A stretch of 64,000 nucleotides of DNA from Girardia tigrina (Eukaryota). The stretch is from the NCBI GenBank assembly GCA_001938485.1, contig MQRK01230377.1, positions 1 to 64,000 of the forward strand, given 5' to 3'. A model generated the notes under the pieces. The model saw only the letters and a program-made list of their open reading frames with translations, was not told where the DNA came from and did not search any database. Of the stretch, positions 48-22,040 are shown in pieces (within the stretch, counting starts at the first letter, position 1; every line of letters begins with the position of its first letter). Position numbers and translations under genes: made by a program.

Positions 48-655
48 ATTTAGAAACCTATTTCTGAAATCCTTCTACTCAATCAATTTTCTTCAAACTT
101 TGCACACTTACTCATTCTCGATGACAATAAATGATTATGTAAAAATTTAATCAAAAAAAACTTTTTGAGATCCAAAAATGTGAAAAAAACAAAAAATTCG
201 GAGTTCCCGAACAATATTAATCGCAAGATATCTATTTATAAATTATAATTAGTTTATATTGATTTTTATTGTTTTTTTAATTAAAATTTTTAAATTTTAA
301 AAACTTTGTTGGAAAAGTAGAGTTTGGATATAAAAATATAAAAGAATGGATATAAAAATTTTTAGTTTTTGATTTACTAGTTTTTGAAATTAAATTAATT
401 AACATCCAACAGTAAATTATTTATAAAGAATTATTGTGTCCTGTGTACACAAAATCAAAATGTACATGGACCATATCATGAGATTAAAAATATCTCATAA
501 CATGTTGTCTTTAAAATTTAAATCCATAAATTTTGTTTTCAGATTTATATATACATATAAAAATTTTTATGTATATAAGGAATTATTTATCTGCAATTAT
601 ATTTACCATCTTATAAGTTTCTAAAATTTTAAAAAATCAAATAAGAATAACAAAC

Positions 656-1226
656 CCTTGCAGCCTTGCTATTTGAACCAGAGGACATAATTTTATATAA
701 GGATTTTCTATATCGAAAGCTACACTGTCCTTCAACTTCAACAAATCTCTTGTTTTTTTCACTATCTTCACTGTATTTTTTAAGCTTGTTACTGGCTATT
801 TTATATGTCTGATAATCACTCCAGCAACATGGTTCCATAAAGTGTTCATTAATTCCCCAAAACAAAAGTTCTTCCTCGAAAAATGTCAGGCACACATTTG
901 GTGGAGAATGGAGTCTACCTGTTCGATAGAAATTTAAAACGGAATTAAAGCACACTGGATCACGATCAATAAACACAATGTCATCATAGTTGTGATCACC
1001 TAAACATTTATGGAGTTTGGAGTCGGAAATATTGTATAGTGTTTCATCAAATATTTCAAATATTTTCCCTCCGACGTTAATTTTCTTCGTTTTTGCTGGT
1101 GTTTTAGATTCATCCTTATAAGCCCAAACTGGAAATGTTGGTGCTTCTATATTAAATATTTTTAGAAATAGATCAAAAAATGAAACTCTTCTGTTCCACC
1201 CTCATCAAGAAACTTTTCTTTGCCAT
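656..1226 (-). CDS. Voltage-gated K+ channel, Shaw/Kv3-like, 5' exons (T1 domain); gene continues beyond the left edge
   Basis: The frame extends upstream of the called ORF to KINVGGKIFE...FIDRDP...LNFYRTGRLH...FEEELLFWGI...EPCCW (T1/BTB domain; the C-terminal part is most like Shaw). Predicted exons 1187-1226 (ATG) and 656-1146 are joined by a 40-nt GT-AG intron; donor GTTTGT follows SKAAR. Confidence 0.85.
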
Positions 1227-2439: not shown

Positions 2440-3180
2440 TTTTCAATGTGCTAGCACAATGCTTTTTAAGTTGCACATATGCAAAAGTGCAAAAATCAAT
2501 ACATAAAATTTTTTAAAAGTGCTAGTGCCAAAAATCGATATGATGTGTTTGATGCACATTTTGATTCTCTATCAGAATGTGCAATTAGAAATTTCATATA
2601 TTGATTACTTTTCCCTATAATTAGCATAATGTGCAAATTTACACAAAATGCATATCGATTTTAGAGGTACAAGGAAGCAGAACATCAAAAAAGCGCTGAT
2701 GCACTTGAATAGGAACCCATATACATACATTCAGATTCCATGTCAACATTTTCGAAAAAGTGCTTAAAAATCGATTTTTTCGTATATTTATGAAACCAAT
2801 GTATTCCATGTGTGTTATTTAACATCAAACAATACCTCGTGAATCGCCTAATGTACCCCCTCAACAATCACAAGTACCTTGGTTACCGTAACCAAGATAA
2901 ATAACCTTTTATCTTATATTTAAAAACTACATGTATAAAACTCCTATTATACTTAAAACGTGCATAGACATTATACATAACATGTACATAATCAGCTAAA
3001 TTAGCTGAGCCTAGGCATCACCTATCACAAGTACCTTGGTTGCCGTAACCATGTGACATAACCTTTTAATATATATATAAAAACCTATGTAATACCTAAA
3101 ACATGCATGGGTATTCTACACCACAAGACCCCTTACGGAGGGTCGACATCTACCTACATTGTGAAAGTTCATTACATTCA

Positions 3181-3215
<35 letters not shown>

Positions 3216-3546
3216 AAAAGTGATACATTAAAACAAACTATTATTAAAATAATTAATATATCTATTTAAATAATATGATATCTATTATATTGTTATATTA
3301 TCAACCATTACCTTATCAACCATTTACAAAAGTTACCGTATCCAAGGTGATATGGTCATGTCAGCTTATTGCACTCATCGTGTCAATGTATTGCATAGTT
3401 AACATTTTATAGTATATATTAATAGTATATATTAATATTATATATAACAAAAGTTGTTGTTTGCAAGGTTTTGAATGAATACATGTATACGACGACTATT
3501 TTCAACAAACATTTATTTGCATAACATGCACAGATGTAACAAATTT

Positions 3547-3587
<41 letters not shown>

Positions 3588-3676
3588 TAGGTTTTGAATG
3601 AAGATATAACAATATATTTGAAACACAACTTATATAGTTGTAATCACATGTCACTGTAATAGATTGTAAAATAACA
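2440..3676. repeat. Left arm of long inverted repeat
   Basis: Its reverse complement aligns with 8550-9668 with indels and (TA)n length differences; the mirrored ORFs 2685-2867(-) and 9242-9469(+) are near-identical. Confidence 0.95.
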
Positions 3677-4104: not shown

Positions 4105-7100
4105 TCACAAAAAATAATGTCCGTGATGTAATGTACTTATTCCATCTGTTAAAATATGTCGTTTATCGTCAAACCAATTTAGGCTTTTCTTCCGCATCAT
4201 TACTGTGGAGACTTTATGTTCTCTTGATTGGATCCTTCGCATTTCAGAAATTATATTGATTTGTTCCCGCAGCACTCTCATATAATCATGGAATCCGATT
4301 TGGTTTGCTAACATTGCCCGTTGAATTCCCTTTGCCCTTTCTTTGATATTACCATCCACATCAATGGCATACATCTTAGACGGTAGTGCCACGAATCTAG
4401 AGATGATTTGACCATTGATTTCATCCTTAAACTTTCCAAGGACCTTTTCATTTGATATTCGAATAATTTGGATGGTCCTTTGGATAGTCTGAGGTATCCA
4501 TATGTTGAGCCATTTGAAAAAACTCCGCAAACAGAACTTCTGTATGAATCTGATAGACAAGGCTATCAGTATCCATATACATTAACTGTAAATCTTGGAA
4601 TTTGGGGACCATGATGTCATAGTGGAAGTCATACATCAAGGTCTTGGATAGATCCAGGATTGACATCCCCACATATATTGGTTTTCAGTGTATATAATAG
4701 TTCTGTGGAAGATTGATTTGGCAATGAGCTTCTTTGCCCGCTTCCAATCATATACCAGTTCGATGTTGATTCTGTTGCGTATATTCTCCATTGTTTTGCC
4801 AAAAACGCTGTTATTGTACAGTTTGAACTGATCCTTTTCAAAGTCGTTTTTGGCATTGGTCCTCAGATTGGTATTAAAGTCAATATATGGCTGAAGCCAT
4901 TTTAACTGACTAAACTGAAGAGCCCAATGTATTTTTATGATTATGAGACCATTCTTAATAGCTTGTTGAAGATTGATGTAGTGGGCTACATATTTTTGTT
5001 TATTTTCCAAGTGACAGAGCAGCTTCTTATGTTTTCTATTAGGTGGACATTTTCTCTCAGCAGAAAAGGCAGCTGCTCATGTCTTGTATGGAAGGATTTG
5101 GGATATTCAACATCAACTTCCAATATGTAACCCACATCTCCATTAGGGTCCATTTTTTCTATTGGAATTTCTTCTGGTTGATCCATCCATTTGAAATTGT
5201 CGTAAGGCAGTGGAGCACTCATTACCTAATCATATAAGTTATTGGCATTCAAGTATGTTTTGTATGAAAATGCCTTGGACGGATCATAAATTTTCATGTA
5301 TTTGTTGTTTACTTCACTGTATCGATGAATAGATTGACAGATTCCACCTGGGATAACTTTTTCCAGCATGATGATCATGTCATAATCTTTCAGGACTTGG
5401 AGCCTTATGCATGTATATTTCAGCATTGCTGCCAAACTCATACCTGGTTGTGTAAAGAAATGAGCTGGATATAACTTGTGGCTCTTAAGTGTCACATCCC
5501 GAAAGCTCTCAAAGACATCCGTAAGAAGCGGCTTAACAACACATCACTATATTCCCCAAGTGTTTGGCATTTGAAAGCTTGCCAGACATTTTGTGCATAC
5601 TGATAATCAGCATCACTAATGTCAGTGTCATTAAGCTTGTTGTAAAATGCCTCTTTTGCTGGCAATGTTGTTTCATCCAGCGATCTCCATGATGTTTTGT
5701 AGCCATAGGGGAATATTCCTTTCCTTTTTACCAAGTCAAATTATTTGGGAAGAACTTTTTAGTTTCCTTCAGTTCATCTGCTGGAAGATTCTTCACACGG
5801 CTGTCCAGCGATGATGACATGAACCCGAAACTATCGATGAATCGTAGCTTAATTCTTCCCACATGCTTGGTAAATGTGATGTATTTTTCCTCACTATTTG
5901 GAATAACATCTATATTCCCTTGGATTTTTCCAAGTTCTCTTACTATGAAGTGGGAGTCATATTCACTAAGACTGTGGAATACAACAGGAACATTTGTAGA
6001 TGTTTTACATCGCAAATTGCAGTTATTACATACTGCTCCTCGATATTTTCTAGTAAAATGACAATGATCTTTGACTTTGTTATTGTCATTTGTGAATGGC
6101 TTTTCACACATGTAACATTGTGTTGTCTTGTTCAATTGATATTTTTCTCGCAAAGTCATCACCATATTTAGCTTGTGTTGTTCCAGCATGTCTTCAATTG
6201 TATGGGCATAAGTTTCCATACGTTGCATAAAATGTTCCGCTGCATCTGGACCTCTGTATAGGAATGACTCCTTGTCAATACCCAATGCATACATACAGTA
6301 TGATGATAGCTCATGATACTGGTATGCTGTCGTACGGCTACGTTGCGGATCCGGATTGCACGTTTGGATTGGGCTTAGAATGGCTTCAAAGTCACAATAT
6401 ATGATAATGGGAACTTTCTGCATCTTTTCATATTCTTTGAATTCGATATAATCTTCCTTGGGAAATTCTGCTCTGATACAATGAGTGTTATTGCAGTAGG
6501 CTTTGTGCTCCTCTAAATTGATTGTTGCATCATCACCATTGAAATGAGTAAAGCATCTTTTACAAATCTCTTTACTTTTGTTATGTTTTGATATTTGGGA
6601 GCTTAAGAGACGCTCAAAGTTCTTGATCCAGATGAAATTCCTCTTTTCTTCATGATGTAGCAGAAGCAAATCTCTATGATCCTCTAATTCTTCCTTATAT
6701 ACAAGTAAGGGATAAAAATTTTCATTCTCTAATCCAAAGATTTTGATTGAGATATTGTTGATGCCTCCAAATTTAGTGACTTCATCAAAGCTCGGTGGGA
6801 ATGATATGCAGTTGAGGTCATGTGTGCTGCAGATTGTTGTATTTAGATACTCATGATGCATTGTTTTGATCTTTAACGAATTTTGATAGTATCGCATACT
6901 TGAAGCACATATTGTCATTATTTTTTACATTGACGCATACCTTTTTTATTAGATATCCATTCAGTAAGTGACATGTAGGAGGTGCCTGTCATTGGTGAAT
7001 ATTTATGAACATAGATAATCAATTGATCTTCAGATGACAGAGTCCATCCACTTTTCTTCTCCTCGCTATCGTAAGCTTCCTTTATTATTTTGACATGTTC

Positions 7101-8030
7101 TTCATTGAGCCACTCCAAAATATCATCGGATTCTAACATTGGCCTATTTTTGTCTTGAAGGCTCTTTGTGACAGTTCATCATCAACATTGGTGAATGTTG
7201 CCTCCAATTTAAGTTTGACTTTGATAGCCTTGAAATCAACCATGTTGTCTTTTAGAATCTCTATGGCTTCCTTCTTGTAATATTCCAGAAACTCATGGAG
7301 ATTTGTAACCTTGCTGCCTTGGCTGTCTAGGTTAGCCTGGGGAGCCTTGATAACATATTGACGTACCTTCTTATTCAATGAAGCTTTATGAATTGGTCTC
7401 AGTCTTGAACTTTTTGATGGAACATTTATGATATTTGTATCATTTGCACGTTTTGATAGAATATTTACAGCCATGACAGTATTTGAAACATGTATCTCCA
7501 TTGGAACTTTTGTAAAATTGACATGTTCTAAGGGAAATTTTGTTGTATTTGAAAGATTTTTCTCTATTTGAACATTTGAAACATTCTTCTCAATTGAAAA
7601 GTTTGAAACATTTGGTGCTGCAAGAACTGGATACATTGATGATGTGAATAAAGCCTTCTTGGACTTCACTGAAAAGGCGCCCAAGGGGTCCTTGTGACAT
7701 TCATAAAATTGATTATAGTCGCCACTACTTGCATTTTGACACACTGGACAAATGTAATACTCACATCTATTGAACACATATCCATAGTAATGCTTTATTG
7801 TATCATGACAATTTTGCGGATTGTAAACATTTGCCACACAGCATGAATATACTGAACATTGCGGAATTTTTGTTTGTATTTTCTCTTGAATTATCTTCGA
7901 CATATTTTCTTTAAATATATTCTTTTTCGATTTAGTGAAAGGAACCAGATGTTGTTTATGGTCATTGTAAAATTCTTCAAAACTAGTTCTGTACACTGTC
8001 TCGCATGTTGGACATATAAAATATCCTGTT
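4105..8030 (-). pseudogene. Type B DNA polymerase (Polinton/protein-primed type) with endonuclease VII-like Zn domain, frameshifted
   Basis: About ten consecutive ORF fragments carry the motifs in order: ExoI IIYCDFE, CYMC...KVKDHCH...YRGAVCNNCN (EndoVII-like), ExoII FHSLSEYDSHF, RFIDSF, RKGIFPY, motif A YLNANNLY, GYILEVDVEYP, motif B KLYNNSVFGKTMEN, motif C YMDTDS, LGKFKDE, KMYA, C-terminal TLHHGHY. Confidence 0.93.
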
Positions 8031-8328
8031 GAAGAGAAACTCTACTTGTAGTATTGGGATAAATTTGAATTCTAAAAACATATATATTGACGGAGCTGAC
8101 CAAAAACTAACCGTTTTCTTAACAGGATTTTGAAATAATGAAAAAATGTCTGGATGTCACGATATCTTATAACGTTTATTATATTTATTTTATTTGATGC
8201 ATTAAAACAAAACATACTATTATAATAATAATACTTATTACTTTAAATATAATAAAACAAACACTTGTTATTAATTTGTTTTAATGAATCACTTTTAATA
8301 AAGACACAAGGCGGGAATTTGAATTGAA

Positions 8329-8647
8329 ATGAATACATTGATATTCATTTTTAACAAAATGCTGCGTAATATCAATTATAAAGGATTTACTGGTGATTGT
8401 CTGAAAGATCTCCATTTTGGTACTAAACCGTGTCAATGTGTTTTACACTTTGCGGAGTACACTATCATATTCTTCCGCAATGGAAAATGTAGAATAATGG
8501 GCTGTAAGCAACATGGTGATCCATCCACTTTACCTTACAATATCACTAATGTTACTTTATAATCTATTACAGTGACATGTGATTACAACTATGTAAGTTG
8601 TGTTTCAAATATATTGTTATATCTTCATTCAAAACCTAGTATATAGT
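8329..8647 (+). pseudogene. Divergent TBP-like (TATA-binding protein fold) ORF, one repeat plus the start of the second, with a premature TAA at 8560-8562
   Basis: MLRNINYKG resembles TBP LQNIVST; TIIFFRNGKCRIMGCK resembles TALIFSSGKMVCTGAK; read-through gives NVTL[Q]SITVTCDYN, resembling DFKIQNMVGSCDVK. The left inverted-repeat copy has CAA at the stop position. Aligned by eye only. Confidence 0.65.
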
Positions 8648-9668
8648 CGTCGTATACATGTATTCATTCAAAACCTTGCAAACAACAACTTTTGTTATAT
8701 ATAATATTAATATATACTATAAAATGTTAACTATGCAATACGTTGACATGATGAATACAATTCGCTGACACGATGAGTGCAATACGTTGACGTGACGATA
8801 TCACCTTGGATACGGTAACTTTTGTAAATGGTTGATAAGGTAATGGTTGATAATATAACAATATAATAGATATCTTATTATGTAAATAGATATATTAATT
8901 ATTTTAATAATAGTTTGTTTTAATGTATCACTTTTAATATATATATATATATATATATAAATTGAATATAATGAACTTTCACAATGTAGGTAGATGTCGA
9001 CCACCCGTAGGGAGTCTTGTGATGTAGAATACCCATGCATGTTTTAGGTATTACATAGGTTTTTATATATTAAAAGGTTATGTCACATGGTTACGGTAAC
9101 CAAAGTACTTGTGATAGGTGATACCTAGACTCAGCTAATTTAGCTTATTATGTACATGTTATGTATAATGTCTATGCACGTTTTAAGTATAATAGGATAA
9201 AACGTTATATATTTTAGTTACAGTAACCAAGATACTTGTGATTGTTGATTGGGTACATTAGGCGATTCACGAGGTATTGTTTGATGTTAAATAACATACA
9301 TGGAACACATTGGTTTCATAAATATACGAAAAAATCGATTTTAAGCACTTTTTCGAAAATGTTGACATGGAATCTGAATGTACGTATATGTGTTCCTATT
9401 CAAGTGCATCAGCGCTTTTTTGATGTTCTGCTTCCTTGTACCTCTAAAATCGATATGCATTTTGTGTAAATTCGCACATTATGCTAATTATAGGGAAAGA
9501 TAATCAATATATGAAATTTCTAATTGCACATCCAGATAGAGAATCAAGATGTGCATTAAACACATCATATCGATTTTTGGCACTAGCACTTTTAAAAAAT
9601 TTTATGTATTGATTTTTGCACTTTTGTACATGTCCTACTTAAAAAGCATTCTGCTAGTACATTTAAAA
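8550..9668. repeat. Right arm of long inverted repeat
   Basis: Mirror of 2440-3676 (e.g. atcgatttttggcactagcacttttaaaaaatttt vs aaaattttttaaaagtgctagtgccaaaaatcgat). Confidence 0.95.
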
Positions 9669-9774
9669 TGTGTGGCACAATGTGCACTATCGATCAACAC
9701 TTAAAAATATCAATTAGCACATTTTGGCACTGTGCAGTGATCGATTAGCACTTTTCTTCAGTTGCAATGTAAAG

Positions 9775-10212
9775 GGTCACGGTTCCCATGGATATGGGTA
9801 CCGTTACCATGGTTACAACCAGCTTGAATGACTGTATCAGTTGCTAATGAAAAATGTCCCTTGGTTACCGTTGCTAAAGATATTAGGACCTTGGTTACCG
9901 TTGCTAGGGTGATCGGAACCGTTGCTATGGTAACTGTGACCGTTTCTATGGTAATCTGAATCGTTTCTATGGTAACTGCGACCTTGGAAACGACCTCAAC
10001 GTTTGGTAACCTATACTCGTTGCTATTGCAAACGGTAAGCCCTCGCAACGTTATGAGATTTCGAAGGGGGGAGGTCAGTAACACAACTACCTTTTACCAT
10101 GGCTACAGACATGTTTTCATTGGTTACTGTACCGATTTCCATAGTAACTAGGCAATTTCATTTGTTATCGTGGTCCGTTGCCATGGTGACGTCACCCATT
10201 CCATGGTAATCA
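9775..10212. repeat. Array of X-box-like palindromes (GTT.C[CT]ATGG.AAC), partly with 21-bp period
   Basis: gttaccatggttac 9803, gttgctatggtaac 9921, gtttctatggtaat 9942, gtttctatggtaac 9963, gttgccatggtgac 10177, plus degenerate copies. Confidence 0.8.
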
Positions 10213-10354
10213 AGATTATTGGAAAATTTATTGATTGATGCAGAACTCTCATTATCCCCCTACTAAATAAAAACAAAATCAATTAACCAAGTTTTCAAAA
10301 TAATTACTTTATACCTAATAACTCGATAACTATTGACTTTGGAAGAAACCTTTC

Positions 10355-13300
10355 TGTAATATGAATTAAAATTAATAATTCATTTGTTTTAATCGTGTAA
10401 CATTATTCTTCCCGACGACAAGCTATCGCGGCATCGATGAAGGGGATAAAATTCATATATTCGGTGCGGCTGTTCAATGGGATGGGAGATTTCGAATCAT
10501 GGTCCCGTAAATTTGAAGTATTGGCAACCATATGCGGGATTGACAAGGCGAACGCGATTGAAATGACGTTAGAAGGCCGTGTGTCCGAGCTGTTCTCAGG
10601 TATGGAGAGCAGTGCCTGTGAGGAATATTTTAAATTGTTTGAATGTGTGAATGTATTGATGCTGTATGTTGATTTGAGTATGCTGAACTTAGAATGGTGA
10701 TTCTGCCACCCATATGGAAATTTGTATTTCTTTTAAATTTAAAATGATTGACTATTCGAACATAATTAAAATAATAAGTTTTTATTTTTTTAAATTAAGT
10801 TTAATATTTGTTTTAAGAAAAGAAAAGCATTTAATTAAATTTAAATAAATTTAATAAGATTTAAATTAAAGTCAATTTAAAAATTTGATAACGTTTTTAT
10901 AATTTTGTGTTTTTATATATTTAGAAGTGATTTAAATTATTATTTTTAATTAATATTTTTAAAAATTTATGTGTTTTTAAAAGATTAAGAAAAATTGTTC
11001 GAATAAACATGATTAAAAAGAGAAATAACGAAACCAATTAGAGCGATGTCAAATGATGAAAGATCTTCGGAGAGTTGTAATAACTCTAAATGTTGTAATA
11101 AAAATTCAAATGAGAATTGTCTCAATGTTCTTAATAGTGCCCAATGCGACTACGAGACGGTAAAATTGACGCTAATGGATGCGTTCGGACATGACTCGAA
11201 AACCGCTTATGATGATTTACGCATGAGAGTTCTTCAGCACGTTGAATCTATTGATGAATTCGTTGCAGCATTAAGGTGATCTGCAAAGATTGCGTGCCAC
11301 AATTAAGAGCTGCAAGAGCCGCTGGTCAGACAAGCCTTCCTGGCGGGTCTTCCAGATGAAGTTGCAAGGTACATCGCATCGGAAGCCGTGAAAGACGGGG
11401 TGACGTAGCAGCAATTAATTGCACTTGCACGTGCTCTACTTAGCACTAATCGATTGAGATCTGGAGTGACTGGGGCCACGACAGTGTCGGGGAACGACAC
11501 CGCCGGGAAAAAGAAGGTACCGACATCTGCAGTGACATCAGAAGTCAATTTGGCAATTGCGCTGAGATGCTTCAATTGTGGCAGGAATGGAAACCGGTAA
11601 AGCGACTGATGGACCGCACTGAAGTGGGTGGTGAATTCTACGGTTGCACGCCAGTCCAGGGGTTCTTAATTTGCAGCGCGAGGGGCTTCGTTGCAAGGAC
11701 TGCCCACGCAGAGGCCAGCCGGCGGGAAACAAATAGGAGGATCTCATGGTTGCGCGAGTGTAATGCCGCGAGGCATTGCGCAAAATTATCAATAGTTGAT
11801 GTGCTGATTGAAGGGCAGTGCGTGAGAGCGCTCGTGGACTATGGATGTTCTACGTCGATGATCGACGAGAAATTGGTGGATTCAGAAAAGGTAGAGTGAG
11901 TATCATGGTGGACCTTGTTCGCGAAGAACTTCAGCGGGATCGGAGATGGATGTAATAACCCAACTAAGGGGGGTCGCAATCCGTGGAAATGGAATTCTGT
12001 CGGCTTTCACGGCTAGCCAAACGAGTGAGTTTGCCCTGTAAAAGAACCGCAGTCAAACGACCAGAACGGGACATTCGTATCGGAATCGAATGGGGTTCTG
12101 TGATACGGTCCGGCTCGAATAACCGATACGAACTTCACTGCGAAATTTGAGAGGGTTTCTTGGTCTGTTAAGTGGCACTGGAATGGGGGAAAAGTACCCC
12201 CGGTACATGATAGTGTGGTCCAATACGCATCTGTGAAAATCTACCAGGAAGAAGTTAGTGCAGAACTTCATGAGAGAAAAAAGAGGAGGTGGTGGTCAGA
12301 ATGTGAAGGCCTACGGAAGCCAGTACTGCCACTTATGGCCATAGTTCAAAAACCCAAGGAGAAATTCTGTACGGTTCTCGATTTCAGAAAGCTGAACGAG
12401 TCAATATCGAGTCACACAGCAGAGATTCTTGTCTGTGGAGACAAGATCAGAAAGTGGCACCGCATGGGAAGATATTTGAAAATCGTTGACTCAAGGCGTG
12501 CATATTTGCAGATCAAGGTCGATAAATCGCTATGACCCTATTCGGTGGTGAGACATCAGGGCCGATCTTGGTATTTAACTCAGCTGGGGTTTGAACTAAG
12601 TGTTGCTCTGAAGATAATCCAGAAGAACATGTGCTCGGATCAAACCCAGCAGTTCAGTTCAGTACCGACGCGTACTAAGATGATATTGTAGTGGATACCG
12701 CCAAGATTCCGATAGAGAGGCTGATGGCAGTACTTAAGCGATTTTGTCTGGAAGCCAAACCCTCGGTGGCAATAGATGACAGCCGCATCCTGGGATTGGC
12801 GGTGAAAGCAGAGGCAAACGGTACGCTTCAATGGAGGCGTGATGGTGATGTTCCGGAACTCCCAGAAAAATTAACTCGCCGCAGTATTTTTGCATGGACA
12901 GGACGGATACTGGGTCATTACCTAGTGTGCGGGTGGTTGAGGCTGTCTTACAGTATTATGAAGAGGGTCGCTGGAGAAGGAAGGTCGAACCAGAAGCGAC
13001 TACAATGGCAAAGCAATTGGCAATGAGAATCAAAGAATAAGACCCAGCTCGAGGCCCTTTGGAAGTCCCGAAGACTGAGAAGTGTAAAGTGTGGTTTAAT
13101 GCCAGCTCAATGTTAATTAGTGTATCGAGATCGGGGGAGAGATTACTGTAGATTTTTGCTGGCTCCGGTCAAAAGAGGATTGTAACCACATAAATTTGGC
13201 TAAACTCGACTCGGCAAACCGGGCCATCAAAGAGGCGATGAAATGGTGACTCAGAGGGATCGAGCTTTTAACAGACTTGGTAGCAATTTGCAAGTGGCTC

Positions 13301-14718
13301 AAGAACGCAGTGTCCGGCGCAGGACCCATCAGATCTCAGGCGCTGAGTGACTTATTAATCAGACGAAGGATTATTTTTTTAAACAGGTCGCTGAAGAGGA
13401 GCTGCTTGTCATTAAGATCACCCTGGTCCAATCAGAAATGAACAAAGCAGACAGACTAACTTGTGTACCAGATCATTGTTGGAGTATAGTCCAACTGAAG
13501 CAAGGAATAGCCAGGGTAGCATTAGCAGAGATAGAAAAAATGGAAATGAGTGATGCCCTGAATCGGCTGCATAACATAAACCACTTCGGGGTCAGGTGCA
13601 CTATGTTCCTGGCAAGGAAGGTGTGAGGTCCAAGGAAAGTCACCGAGGATCAAGTGAAAGCCATCGTGAATGGTTGCAATCAATACATGTCAATTGATTC
13701 AGTGCCAGTCCAGTGGGACAAAGAAGAGATCAACTTAAGGAAAACTTGGCAGCGGCTGGACATGGATGTCACACACATGGGGCAGCGAAATTCTTTACAG
13801 TCGTGGATTGCGGGCCAGGGTGCTTCATGGTGTGGAGCTAAATAATCTCAGAAAACGAATCCGACATATATGCTGCGATGAATAGAATTTTGTGTGAGTT
13901 CTGACCCCCTGAAGAAGTCCTTTTAGATAATTTTAGCACGTTCAAAGGAGCAAGGATAAAGAGCTTGCTTCAAAAAGCTTGGGTTGAGGCGAGATATCGA
14001 TGAGTGAACCATCCGAGCGGCAATAGCATTGTAGAACGGAGCCATCGCACGATTAAAAGGATGGTTGTTCGGAACGGCAGAGACGTAAAAGAGATGGTCA
14101 CTTGGTATAACACGACAACAAATACGGATGGTATAATCCCAGCGTCAACAGTTTTCAACCAGAAAAGGAGGCTGCTACTACCAAGGACATTTTTTTCAGG
14201 TAGAGCCAGAACAAATTTGAAATTTGCAGTCGGAGACGAAGTATTCGTCCAGCCCGCATCGCCATACAACTGCATGACCAAGTGTAAACGCGAGAAAGTG
14301 ACAGAGATTCCATCAGTACAGCAGGTGGAAGTGGACGGAACTCCATATAACATCAGCCATGTTCACCGATTGAACCCGACATCAGCAGCCGAACTTGAAT
14401 ATGAAGTGGGCAGGGATGAGGCAACTGAAGAAAATGGTGTAGTGCAGTTCGAACAAGACGAGGGGATGAATCTGAAAATGAGGATGCAGAACTGCAGCAC
14501 ACTGTCTCAGAGGAGAAAAAACCCAGCAGGGCGGTGCGTCGACCAGTGCATTTTGATGATTATGTCTGTGCGAGTGCTCGAAGAAAAAGTGTAAAATGAA
14601 TACCCCCTTGCTCAGACATTGCATATCTATGTGCCTTGAGGGAAAGGGTGTGTGTAATATGAATTAGAATTAATAATTAATATGTTTGTATCGTGTAAAT
14701 TTATTCTTTCCGACAACA
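10355..14718 (+). mobile_element. Ty3/Gypsy LTR retrotransposon, degenerate, 66-bp LTRs
   Basis: LTRs 10355-10420 and 14653-14718 (TG...CA), TSD CTTTC, PPT gagggaaagggtgtg. Contains gag, CCHC remnant, protease (ALVDYGCS), RT (VLDFRKLN; Y*DD), RNase H (NKADRLT) and integrase (SGNSIVERSHRTIK) in Gypsy order. Confidence 0.93.
10617..11136 (+). mobile_element. Solo LTR (TG...TA family) inserted in gag
   Basis: TGTGAGGAATAT...GTTCTTAATA flanked by TSD GTGCC; removing it rejoins gag (SGMESSA|QCDYETVK). Confidence 0.88.
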
Positions 14719-19178: not shown

Positions 19179-22040
19179 TGAAGAAGGCCTAAATAGAAAT
19201 ATATTTTTAAATACTCTAATATTACAGCAACTATTAATTTAAACAAACGGATTTATTAATAATTTAATAAATCCATATAAAATCACACCACATGCCCCCG
19301 TACCCTTGAGGCAAATAAGCATACTCCGCTTGAACAAGGGGAAATTTTTTCACCATCGCATACTGTTGCGCCCGCACACATGAAGTCTTCAAATCGGGTC
19401 GGTCTGCGAATGGCTCTGCTAGGCCGCTCCACAGCGGGCTCCTCGGTTGGTCCAGATTCATGTACAGGTTCTGATTCATCAACCCGAAGGCCATCGCGAT
19501 GCGCCGATCGCATTTCAACGTTTTCCCTCACTTCGTGATCTGAACGAAACCGAGCTGATCCTGACGGTGCATGCCGCACATGGTTGACGTGATACGGCCT
19601 CCCATCCACTTCCACTTAATGTACTGATTTCGTCCCCGTGACTGTTCCGCGCTTTCACCTCGACATGCAGCTGAATGATGGCGTCGGTTTTACGAACACC
19701 CCGTCCCCGACAGCCAGCTCCGTTGGTGATGGATTATGCTGCGATCCCGGCTATGCTTGATTGAAAGTTTTTGGCAATCGTAATCTTCTCTTTTGTGCAA
19801 AAACCGTCGACGCTGGAATTACTCCATTTGAATTTGGAGTCGTATTGTACCAAGCAACCATCTCTTGGGCGTCCCTGTGCCCTGAGCGACCATTCTCTAG
19901 ATCGTTCGGTGGTTGCGTTCCACAATGTCATTGCCACTTGGCCGGTTTACGCATCGAAATCGGGCCTCAATTCCAACCTGAGCAAGGAGGCCCTCCATCC
20001 CGATCCACTGAAGGTGTTATAATTATATAACAGAACTTCTTCTGGTGGCCCAAACTCGTTCCACACGCTGCTCATGGCTGAACATTTGTCCGGTTCGCTC
20101 TCTGATGCGATTTGGTGCCATATTGCAAACCGCCCTGGGCCGCAATCGACCATTGTGAGGAATTTTTTCGGTCCGACAAGTACCACGATTGACCCTCATG
20201 ATGTACTACTTGATATTCCAACAATGATTGATCCACCTTGATCTGCAGGTAGGCACGCCGTAAGTCCAATATCGCTAATTTGCGTCCCATGCGGCACCAA
20301 TTCCGTAGTTTCTCTACGCACACTAGACTCAATGCGGTGTAGCTAGAGATTGAATCATTCAAGTTCCGGTAATCGAGGACCGGCCGGACCTTCTCCTTCG
20401 CCTGTTGCATGACCGNCCGCCATTAAAGGCAGTGACGGTCGCCGTGGACTCTCGCATTCCACTAACCCCCCATTTGATTTCCACTCTTTTAACTTCAAAT
20501 TTACTTCGGCTTGATGCTCTTTGACCGATGAATATTCTGCCGCGCTGTTGTGCACTGGAGGAGCTCGTCCTTCCTTCCAGTGCCACCGCACCGTCCAGAA
20601 TTGACCGTCAAAATCTGCGGTAAAATCGGTGTCCGAAATCTGAATTGTTGCCCCCTGTCTGGCGGCCCTCTCCTGCTTCGAATCAACCGTCATCACTCCG
20701 ACAGGTGACGACAGTACTGCTACCGTCGGATCCTTCCCGTCGATCTCTCCCTGGCTTCTGATTGGAACCAGTTGATTCACCCAGACCGAACGTTGGTTTC
20801 GCTCCGCTTTTCCCGACGTGGACACCTCCCAACATGGAAATCATGTCCATTCCCAGCAACATATCCGCGCCTATTCCACTCAGGTTTCGGGCGAGCAGAA
20901 CTCAACACCGCATCTGACACCCGGACACGCTGACGTCCAGCCAGGAACCGAATTTAATCACTGTTGAACCGAGAACAGTGTTTAGCTTCTCGGATACTCG
21001 TTCTGAGTGATTCTCCGGAACCAACCGCTGGTTGATCATTGATACCGAGCACCCGGTATCCACCAGTGCTCTCACAGAGTGACCACCTACTCGGATTTCG
21101 ACTGTGGGCAGATGCGTGGCATAACCCGCAGATACCCCACCCACGAAACGGTGAGGGTCTGCTAGTCTTCTCCCGGATGCTGCAAGCGGCGTGGGCATTC
21201 AGCACAAAGGTGGTCTGCTAAATTACAGATGCAGCAATGCCTCTGCTTGCCCTTGATGGTGGATTGATCCCATTCTTCGTCCTTCTTTCGGCTCCGCTGC
21301 CTGCGGCCCAACCGGTTGTAGTTCGAGTGATGCGCTTGATTTCCTCCATTTTTGTATTTTGTCGCCGCCGCCGTCACGTTTGCCGGTTCATTGTTTCCCG
21401 GTGTGTTATCATCGGCAGCAAACGATGACGCCATTGTCCTCGCGTTACTTATCCCCCGCTTGCTGATGCGAAGCAGCACGCGTGCCATCGATATTATTTC
21501 CTCAAGCGAAAATTCTTTCCTTACCGCTTCTGCCGATAGATGCTTTGCGATCTCGTCTGGTAGACCGCATATAAAGGCCTGTCTCAGAAAAAATTCCTGG
21601 GACTCTTGCCCGTGACAAACCGTTGTTACGAGCCGTCGCAGATTCTTTAAATGCTTTGCCTGGTCGAAGATATCTCAGGTCAGGACCGTAGGGGCTCAGC
21701 AGCGCTTCTTTTACCGCCTCGTTGCATTCCTGCTTTCCGCTCGATAACCCAGAAAAAAATTCAAACGCTCGACCCTCGAGTAGCATTGGCAGAGCAACCG
21801 CCTTTTCAATGTCGCAAACGGCTGCCGTCACCTCAAATTTGCGACACTATTCTGCGAAATTTCCGGATCCATCGAACAACTGGACTACATCCGTGAATCT
21901 TATTTTGTTCATCAGCCGCGATTGCTTGAAGAAGACCTGAATAGAAATATATTTTAAAATACTCTAATATTACAGCAACTATTAATTTAAACAAACGGAT
22001 TTATTAATAATTTAATAAATCCATATAAAATCACACCACA
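19179..22040 (-). mobile_element. Ty3/Gypsy LTR retrotransposon, internally deleted, 114-bp LTRs
   Basis: LTRs 19179-19292 and 21927-22040 (3 mismatches), TSD TTAAT. Contains gag, CCICNLADHLCAEC knuckle, protease ALVDTGCS, and the RT N-part fused to the integrase core; same lineage as 10355-14718. Confidence 0.93.

Follow-up and report, generated by a model that had tools for sequence, protein, structure and literature searches.

Mavericks/Polintons, the viral TBPs of herpesviruses, the TBPs of large dsDNA viruses and the segmented bidnaviruses are the closest described counterparts of the element analyzed here, and the comparisons with them draw on the available portions of the cited papers. 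With the Mavericks/Polintons (adintoviruses), the Girardia tigrina element has in common a pPolB, an rve integrase with a chromodomain, an A32-type ATPase, an adenain-type protease and a putative double jelly-roll capsid, as well as long inverted ends starting with AGTAG and 6-bp target duplications (PMC8502044). Unlike the elements described there, its gene set appears divided over two separately inserted units, termed A and B, and it has a lineage-conserved TBP with a matching promoter motif and an adjoining gene of the gp2.5-type SSB fold (PMC8502044). The TBP, here called mini-TBP, does have a prior notice in print: in the available text of Starrett et al., TBP stands as a label in the legend of a MELD-virus figure, without analysis, and one supplement of that paper, as far as available, gave no match for TBP (PMC8502044).

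The combination of a viral TBP fold with a non-canonical TATA element before structural genes is known from the beta/gammaherpesvirus proteins BcRF1, ORF24 and UL87 (PMC4893493). These proteins are large, belong to a complex of six proteins and contact Pol II directly via an N-terminal domain (PMC7498053), whereas mini-TBP has 145 aa, lacks the Pol II-binding N-terminal domain and keeps the TFIIB-binding glutamates; the changed TATA base is position 7 (C) in the mini-TBP motif and position 4 in the herpesvirus TATT. By analogy, mini-TBP may work like the herpesvirus TBPs without being a member of that group, and since BcRF1 binds TATA and TATT equally in vitro (PMC4893493), the specificity of mini-TBP may need partners. 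Like the TBPs of large dsDNA viruses (Ravarani et al., PMC7221094), mini-TBP has lost the lobe-1 surface for Mot1/BTAF1, TAF1, TFIIA and Brf1; however, the lobe-1 helices are deleted whole in mini-TBP and just substituted in the large-virus proteins, in which the two TFIIB glutamates mostly vary (about 40% kept at one) and a viral TFIIB is present (PMC7221094). In the mini-TBP family both glutamates are kept (55 and 57 of 59 members), and no TFIIB was found among the 61 neighbouring proteins scanned.

Bidnaviruses and the Drosophila Vesanto virus likewise have a segmented pPolB genome with an inverted terminal sequence common to the segments (PMC8363768), but bidnaviruses are ssDNA viruses (PMC4061559). 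The G. tigrina element is an integrating Maverick with a putative double jelly-roll capsid. Bidnaviruses have parvovirus-type genes and are not known to encode an integrase. In the accessible literature, from which Repbase Reports, most subscription journals and bioRxiv supplements are excluded, the matches listed for TBP in Polintons, Mavericks or adintoviruses included nothing on the mini-TBP family, those listed for Maverick promoter motifs did not include YATAAACR, and those listed for bipartite or segmented Polintons included no A/B split. The main texts of PMC11161782, 10.64898/2026.06.19.733378 and 10.1101/2023.08.22.554363 mention neither TBP nor TATA.

The mini-TBP pseudogene and unit A

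The window is a stretch of 64,000 nucleotides (positions 1-64,000 of contig MQRK01230377.1, G. tigrina, assembly GCA_001938485.1), and the assembly, referred to below as the own genome, was searched over 1.43 Gb in 255,254 contigs. The original prediction, made from the letters by eye, proposed a highly divergent TBP-like protein in the frame 8329-8647 (+), and the three named sequence blocks are present there. Because the window copy alone, with X at the stop, gave zero Pfam matches and zero TBP matches in a PDB sequence search, the by-eye match is not demonstrable on this copy. The evidence comes from its relatives. The own genome has 1,486 mini-TBP candidates; all of the 150 that were scored matched, and the window copy is 74-85% identical to the other 149. 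Many copies have an open 145-aa frame that runs on into a clear second repeat, which is the kind of intact paralogue that the original prediction proposed to look for; PF00352 was matched by all three open copies tested (E 1e-15 to 4e-15, 56-58 bits, curated cut-off 22.9), and one of them has 35 solved TBP sequences among its matches, the best at E 4e-12. The TBP fold read by eye is thus recovered by profile and structure searches with the open copies.

The start common to the copies is the Met at 8359, the in-frame ATG at 8329 being absent from most of them. The window frame is interrupted by a TAA at codon 78 (counted in the frame of the original prediction), and, compared with one open own-genome copy, about 194 bp are deleted after 8585. 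The window copy is evidently a dead copy of a real TBP gene. The missing remainder of repeat 2 was correctly noticed, but it results from this deletion and concerns the window copy only. A host TBP paralogue or a domesticated gene was considered and rejected, since the gene has no intron, adjoins an element arm and is represented by more than a thousand candidates. With the insertions, TBP genes and X-box-like arrays have become dispersed over the own genome, and these gene copies can be mis-annotated as host TBP paralogues.

Features of the element in the window (strand given as + or -; a point stands for none)
Feature	Position	Strand	Remark
Left inverted arm	2440..3676	.	Cut at 2440, outer end lost
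Repeat of deleted TBP tail, junction included	3581-3676		Inside left arm
PolB region	4105..8041	-	Pieces matching PolB of Maverick L052 at 25-44% identity; PF02945 E 1.6e-7
Fused promoter repeat	8102..8211	-	Matches regions upstream of PolB and of SSB in fuller copies
Motif TTGTTTTAATG.AT	8276..8300	+	Upstream of TBP gene
mini-TBP pseudogene	8359..8647	+	Covers lobe 1 plus the first lobe-2 strand; matches to open own copies
Right inverted arm	8550..10264	.	Terminus at 10264, AGTAGGG-type end on minus strand
Palindromic GTTRCCATRGYAAC-like site array	9803..10190	.	Outer arm

The mobile-element origin proposed for the gene agrees with its position beside the element arm and with the Maverick gene sets that surround its metagenome relatives (see below). 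The carrier, taken in the original prediction for a small stand-alone PolB element, turned out to be the replication unit of a Maverick/Polinton. The gene set of this unit A consists of pPolB, an SSB-fold gene and mini-TBP; the window element has PolB and TBP, and the SSB gene is absent between its two promoter repeats. A fuller own-genome copy, L032, contains TBP, SSB and PolB, the last cut at its 3' end, within 8,221 bp, and no unit A copy among the mapped own-genome loci combines both ends with a complete PolB. The motif TTGTTTTAATG.AT also precedes the SSB and PolB genes and occurs in the arms; four B copies were scanned for it, and none had it upstream of the unit B genes. The gene adjacent to TBP is predicted to have an OB fold of the T7 gp2.5 type: T7 gp2.5, Enc34 SSB and DUF2815 are its structural matches, with Z values between 8.5 and 9.1 (9.1, 9.0 and 8.5) and an rmsd of 2.8-3.1 for 106-109 aligned residues, the next match, an unrelated one, having Z 5.4; in the Atlas it scores 0.90 to clusters with DUF2738 on 10-13% of their members. 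We regard it as a putative T7 gp2.5-type SSB.

The junction of the TBP-tail deletion occurs in both arms of the window element (3581-3676 and 8550-8645, 97% complementary) and is absent from every other locus retrieved. Its presence in both arms implies that the damaged end was copied to the opposite arm, which fits replication with help in trans and suggests that the window copy was replicated after the loss of TBP and SSB.

Several further features of unit A were observed. PolB lies in either orientation relative to the SSB-TBP pair (own-genome loci L026, L028 and L033 versus L032, L022 and the window), and the two orientations may represent two subfamilies or an invertible segment. The 5' ends of PolB and SSB start with the same short reading frame (for example, L032:3990-4200), which in PolB is followed by a GT(G/T)AGT donor-like site; the common frame and the site suggest a spliced leader. 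The arms of units A and B contain tandem palindromes, with CCAAT-like words interspersed, and 13 of the 16 GTTRCCATRGYAAC-like matches in the window, on both strands, fall within the array, while 1.39 were expected in the whole window. These palindromes have the shape of RFX X-boxes, and the arrays are possibly a host-factor enhancer carried by thousands of insertions.

The mini-TBP family and its Maverick lineage

Searching 1.84 billion representatives yielded 773 matches at E<=0.001 and, with the cut-off set at E<=1e-10, 94 clusters; the matches at these cut-offs are almost all short proteins, and one (P0077) is a cellular TBP. A family alignment of 59 near-full-length members, hand-picked from the match lists, was aligned with seven cellular TBPs for residue mapping. 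The predicted model of a natural open copy (pLDDT 97) has two lobes of five strands each, forming a ten-strand saddle, and the entire length of the 145-aa protein is modelled as TBP fold. Foldseek against TBP structures gave E 2.5e-9 and TM 0.68-0.83, and the top 44 structures listed at E<=0.001 are all TBP. It is virtually certain that mini-TBP is a member of the TBP family.

In the model, lobe 1 lacks H1 and H2, with no helix of at least 4 residues before residue 82, and the corresponding lobe-1 spacers of the family mostly measure 14-19 and 17-23 residues, versus about 25 and 32 in cellular TBPs; a second group of elements retains the helices in shorter form. The original prediction was correct in noting shortened helices. 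They are a family trait, and decay as their source is ruled out by the model, the 59-member alignment and the evidence of selection: dN/dS is 0.26 for mini-TBP over 33 own copies, broken ones included, versus 0.24 for PolB, and 0.06-0.36 among the closest 30 metagenome pairs listed. The purifying selection looked for by the original prediction is therefore present; an earlier dN/dS value of 0.17, from 9 open copies picked by motif, was biased and is superseded by that over 33 copies. Helix H2 of lobe 1 bears the surface for TFIIA, TAF1, Brf1 and Mot1/BTAF1 (PMC7221094).

The residue columns combine conservation with replacement. Three of the four intercalating Phe are kept (F190 and F207 in 59 members, F116 in 58), and the column of yeast F99 is Pro in 57 of the 59. 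Both TFIIB-binding Glu of the lobe-2 stirrup are kept (E188 in 57, E186 in 55). The DNA face has fixed non-cellular residues, namely T124 to M and L205 to N in all 59 members, V122 to R in 58 and the above F99 to P, and further changes at V203 (C in 53), I194 (R in 52), V71 (N in 52) and N159 (S or T in 58). The columns are numbered after yeast TBP. Positions 194, 203 and 205 are the three specificity-changing positions of yeast TBPm3, and the 3' half of the TATA box is read by lobe 1 of TBP, according to the available text of PMC1636458.

A metagenome scan with TBP retained 80 of 89 loci, of which 72, mostly short contigs, were examined. They contained a packaging ATPase (25 loci), an integrase (12), a major capsid gene (11) and a homologue of the SSB-fold neighbour (17). 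PolB, whose linkage to the TBP elsewhere the original prediction had anticipated, was found in 8 loci; three of the six PolB frames scanned have DNA_pol_B_2 (L084, L092 and L105), and the PolB of L052 is 40% identical to that of L084. Near-whole Maverick gene sets surround mini-TBP in L052, L092, L105 and L113, and in two one-piece relatives, L052 (12.6 kb) and L219 (12.7 kb), the core genes lie between one pair of ends. The TBP and ATPase trees of 17 elements, midpoint-rooted and with the inner order mostly unsettled, have the identical two groups, and the own TBP and own ATPase both group with L046, L052, L053, L069, L071, L082 and L219. Mini-TBP is almost certainly a Maverick gene, and the gene is evidently conserved across a lineage of Mavericks/Polintons.

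Scans of IMG/VR with the capsid gave no loci. The scan with the TBP alignment gave 5 giant-virus-type contigs, which were set aside as weak matches in a context unlike that of the mini-TBP family, and the scan with the ATPase gave three distant loci, L212-L214, without integrase or PolB; in L212, TATAAACG lies 10 nt upstream of the ATPase ORF. The metagenome elements also have KilA-N/DUF3627, RING, LRR and PLA2-like accessory genes. In the second group, a longer gene follows the integrase (L105:13512-15424, L092:7692-9598), one piece of which weakly resembles Tet_JBP, at E 0.002 and short of the cut-off. L219, L220, L221 and L222 are Maverick contigs inside bacterial genome records, a placement that is likely due to binning contamination.

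The YATAAACR motif and unit B

The relevant motif was scanned for as ATAAAC within 130 nt of the gene start in 46 metagenome loci; these loci are related, so that the counts below are not independent trials. Of 143 genes in the packaging, capsid, integrase and accessory classes, 102 have ATAAAC upstream in sense orientation and 3 in antisense orientation, with 13 expected from shuffles; by gene, it precedes 22 of 24 ATPase, 9 of 9 capsid and 10 of 12 integrase genes, while four accessory classes counted as late have it in just 4 of 21 cases. Before the TBP, SSB and PolB genes it was found in 8 of 86 cases on the sense strand and 7 on the antisense strand. KilA genes (2 of 5) were counted in neither class. 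The sites are positioned, 63 of 111 lying 30-49 nt upstream of the ATG, and with the preceding Y present in 103 of 111 their consensus is YATAAACR. For comparison, the TATA consensus is TATAWAWR, with the broad form YWTAWADN, in which C at position 7 is excluded (available text of PMC1935006). The odd base of YATAAACR, the C at position 7, would face the remodelled lobe.

In the own genome, the motif precedes 48 of 59 copies of six unit B genes on the sense strand and 0 on the antisense strand, and 0 of 33 TBP genes. In 17 of 23 cases the own SSB gene of unit A has ATAAAC, preceded by A (AATAAAC), at 7-10 nt upstream of its first ATG, which blurs the early/late distinction. In a blind test, L219 and L220, retrieved by the ATPase alone, both proved to have mini-TBP, and the motif precedes 7 of 8 genes in L219 and 3 of 5 in L220. 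Five partial elements without mini-TBP in the available DNA have the motif before 0 of 11 such genes, these controls being few, partial and distantly related; in two of the five the motif occurs before other ORFs, and L212-L214 were excluded from the count. A second, TBP-less Maverick family of the own genome was sought as a control: a family search with PF00770 gave no match, and a search with a distant ATPase led to apparently the same unit B loci. Contigs from RNA-labelled runs (2 metatranscriptome, 2 of presumed type) span all 30 bins, intergenic DNA included.

Own-genome candidates of the same lineage numbered 714 for the capsid and 782 for the ATPase. Unit B has the order ATPase-C7-integrase-C5-C18-capsid-protease-C3 with an arm at either end, and both ends are fixed: an arm lies at most about 350 bp from C3 in 11 of 14 loci and at most 1.1 kb from the ATPase in 8 of 9. 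In copy C223974 the whole B gene set lies within 9,045 bp, with one 50-base gap. The own unit B genes match rve (E 6e-13) and Pox_A32 (E 3.5e-7), and the protease is 42-60% identical to those of the relatives L071 and L219, which have Peptidase_C5. In the Atlas, the capsid scores 0.98 to a cluster of which 30% of the members have PF21738; since Pfam gave solely Capsid_N, at E 0.007 and for a single member, and a sequence search of the PDB no match, the call of a putative double jelly-roll major capsid protein on unit B is single-source and comes from the Atlas.

Genes of both units were found together in 0 of 61 own-genome loci, mapped on chosen long contigs (20 each from the capsid/ATPase, PolB and TBP lists, and the window). 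In the four match lists (150, 83, 98 and 149 contigs, comprising the best-scored candidates only), contigs were shared within units (TBP and PolB 5, capsid and ATPase 4) and none across units A and B. These two null results indicate a split variant rather than a standard Maverick/Polinton, and it is very probable that this Maverick lives as two segments in the own genome. Both units have the same kind of ends: the arm cores of 22 arms are 87% identical between units, versus 88% and 86% within them, and are intermixed in the tree. Target duplications of 6 bp were looked for in 7 copies with both ends; 4 are perfect (L032, L030 and L022 of unit A, the last within a microsatellite, and C203575 of unit B), two B copies are near matches (5/6 and 4/6 bases), and L038, a composite, has no match. 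Exact matches to the terminal pattern number 10,257 in the own genome, against 0 for the reversed control, and correspond to about 5,000 or more insertions. Unit B genes have a pS of 0.06-0.09, versus 0.17-0.27 for unit A genes, which may reflect one recent B lineage and several A lineages; strict co-amplification would not be expected to leave the B copies so much less diverged.

Proposed mechanism and alternative explanations

From the fold, residues and motif we infer that mini-TBP binds TATA-like sites and nucleates a pre-initiation complex, and we consider it likely that it is a late-promoter factor. As a whole, the reading of the window gene as a dead copy on a split Maverick replication unit, the intact protein being a late-promoter factor that reads YATAAACR, is somewhat likely. 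Under the proposed mechanism, unit A, with TTGTTTTAATG.AT upstream of its three genes, would be the early unit, transcribed first by host factors, and pPolB and SSB would copy units A and B from their common ends. Mini-TBP would bind YATAAACR via its remodelled concave face and use the stirrup glutamates, which are kept, to recruit TFIIB and Pol II of the host, while the lack of the lobe-1 helix H2 would let it escape Mot1/BTAF1, TAF1 and TFIIA; unit B would then supply integrase, ATPase and capsid to both units. A late-promoter role would imply a preference of mini-TBP for TATAAACA over TATAAAAG or a scrambled site. The chances are evenly balanced for the most far-reaching version, a segmented integrating dsDNA animal virus with an early and a late segment and a private TBP/TATAAAC code that recruits host TFIIB.

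The original prediction had mini-TBP redirecting or competing for host transcription; the evidence favours control of the element's own structural genes, and competition stays as a rival. As a decoy, mini-TBP would titrate TFIIB or block host TATA boxes, and the motif would be read by a host forkhead factor or host TBP. The kept TFIIB glutamates and the lost intercalating Phe are compatible with a decoy, the X-box-like arm arrays suggest use of host factors, and ATAAACA also fits a forkhead site. However, the strict strand and distance bias of the motif fits a core promoter element, the motif tracks the presence of mini-TBP, and the new DNA-face residues are invariant, not decayed, so that this explanation appears unlikely. 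A role of mini-TBP in replication or integration, by bending the AT-rich terminal repeats, would agree with its place beside pPolB and SSB on unit A, but in the one-piece relatives L219, L105 and L071 it sits among structural genes, and the motif marks gene starts. The motif could otherwise be the late promoter of a helper virus, as virophages are reported, in the literature available, to share promoters with giant viruses, yet an element that owns a TBP needs no helper promoter factor. These last possibilities are very improbable.

For the two units, the competing explanation is that A and B are independent deletion derivatives mobilized by a rare one-piece Maverick. One-piece relatives do exist, A and B are unequally diverged, and the fragmentation of the assembly into 255,254 contigs, with many element ends at contig edges, makes a long joined element harder to find. 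Against such a hidden master stand the fixed position of both unit B ends, the purifying selection on unit A genes across copies, and the absence of a joined locus from the 61 mapped loci and the match lists. We judge it quite unlikely, and prefer the two-segment Maverick.

If the segmented-virus version is true, the late-gene strategy of herpesviruses would have been invented a second time and independently, and mini-TBP would be the smallest two-lobe TBP and form a natural orthogonal pair with its TATA variant. For the timing of capsid genes in animal Mavericks, both a specific protein and a specific DNA site are now proposed. By retaining the TFIIB contact within 145 aa but not the Mot1/TAF1/TFIIA surface and one intercalating Phe, mini-TBP would show which TBP parts are dispensable, and together with its motif it might be put to use as an orthogonal TBP-promoter pair. 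A two-segment Maverick would be intermediate between Polintons in one piece and pPolB viruses with segmented genomes, for example bidnaviruses, in which case capsid-less or polymerase-less genomic copies would not all be debris.

The surroundings of the element in the window include other sequences. A BTB_2 exon of the potassium-channel T1 type (629-1201, minus strand, E 1.9e-21) identifies the host as an animal; its distance to the cut left arm is about 1.2 kb, and this arm is abutted by a piece of a mariner transposase (2053-2349). To the right of the element are two GC-rich broken elements, labelled by eye as Gypsy-like, at about 10400-14700 and 19200-21900.
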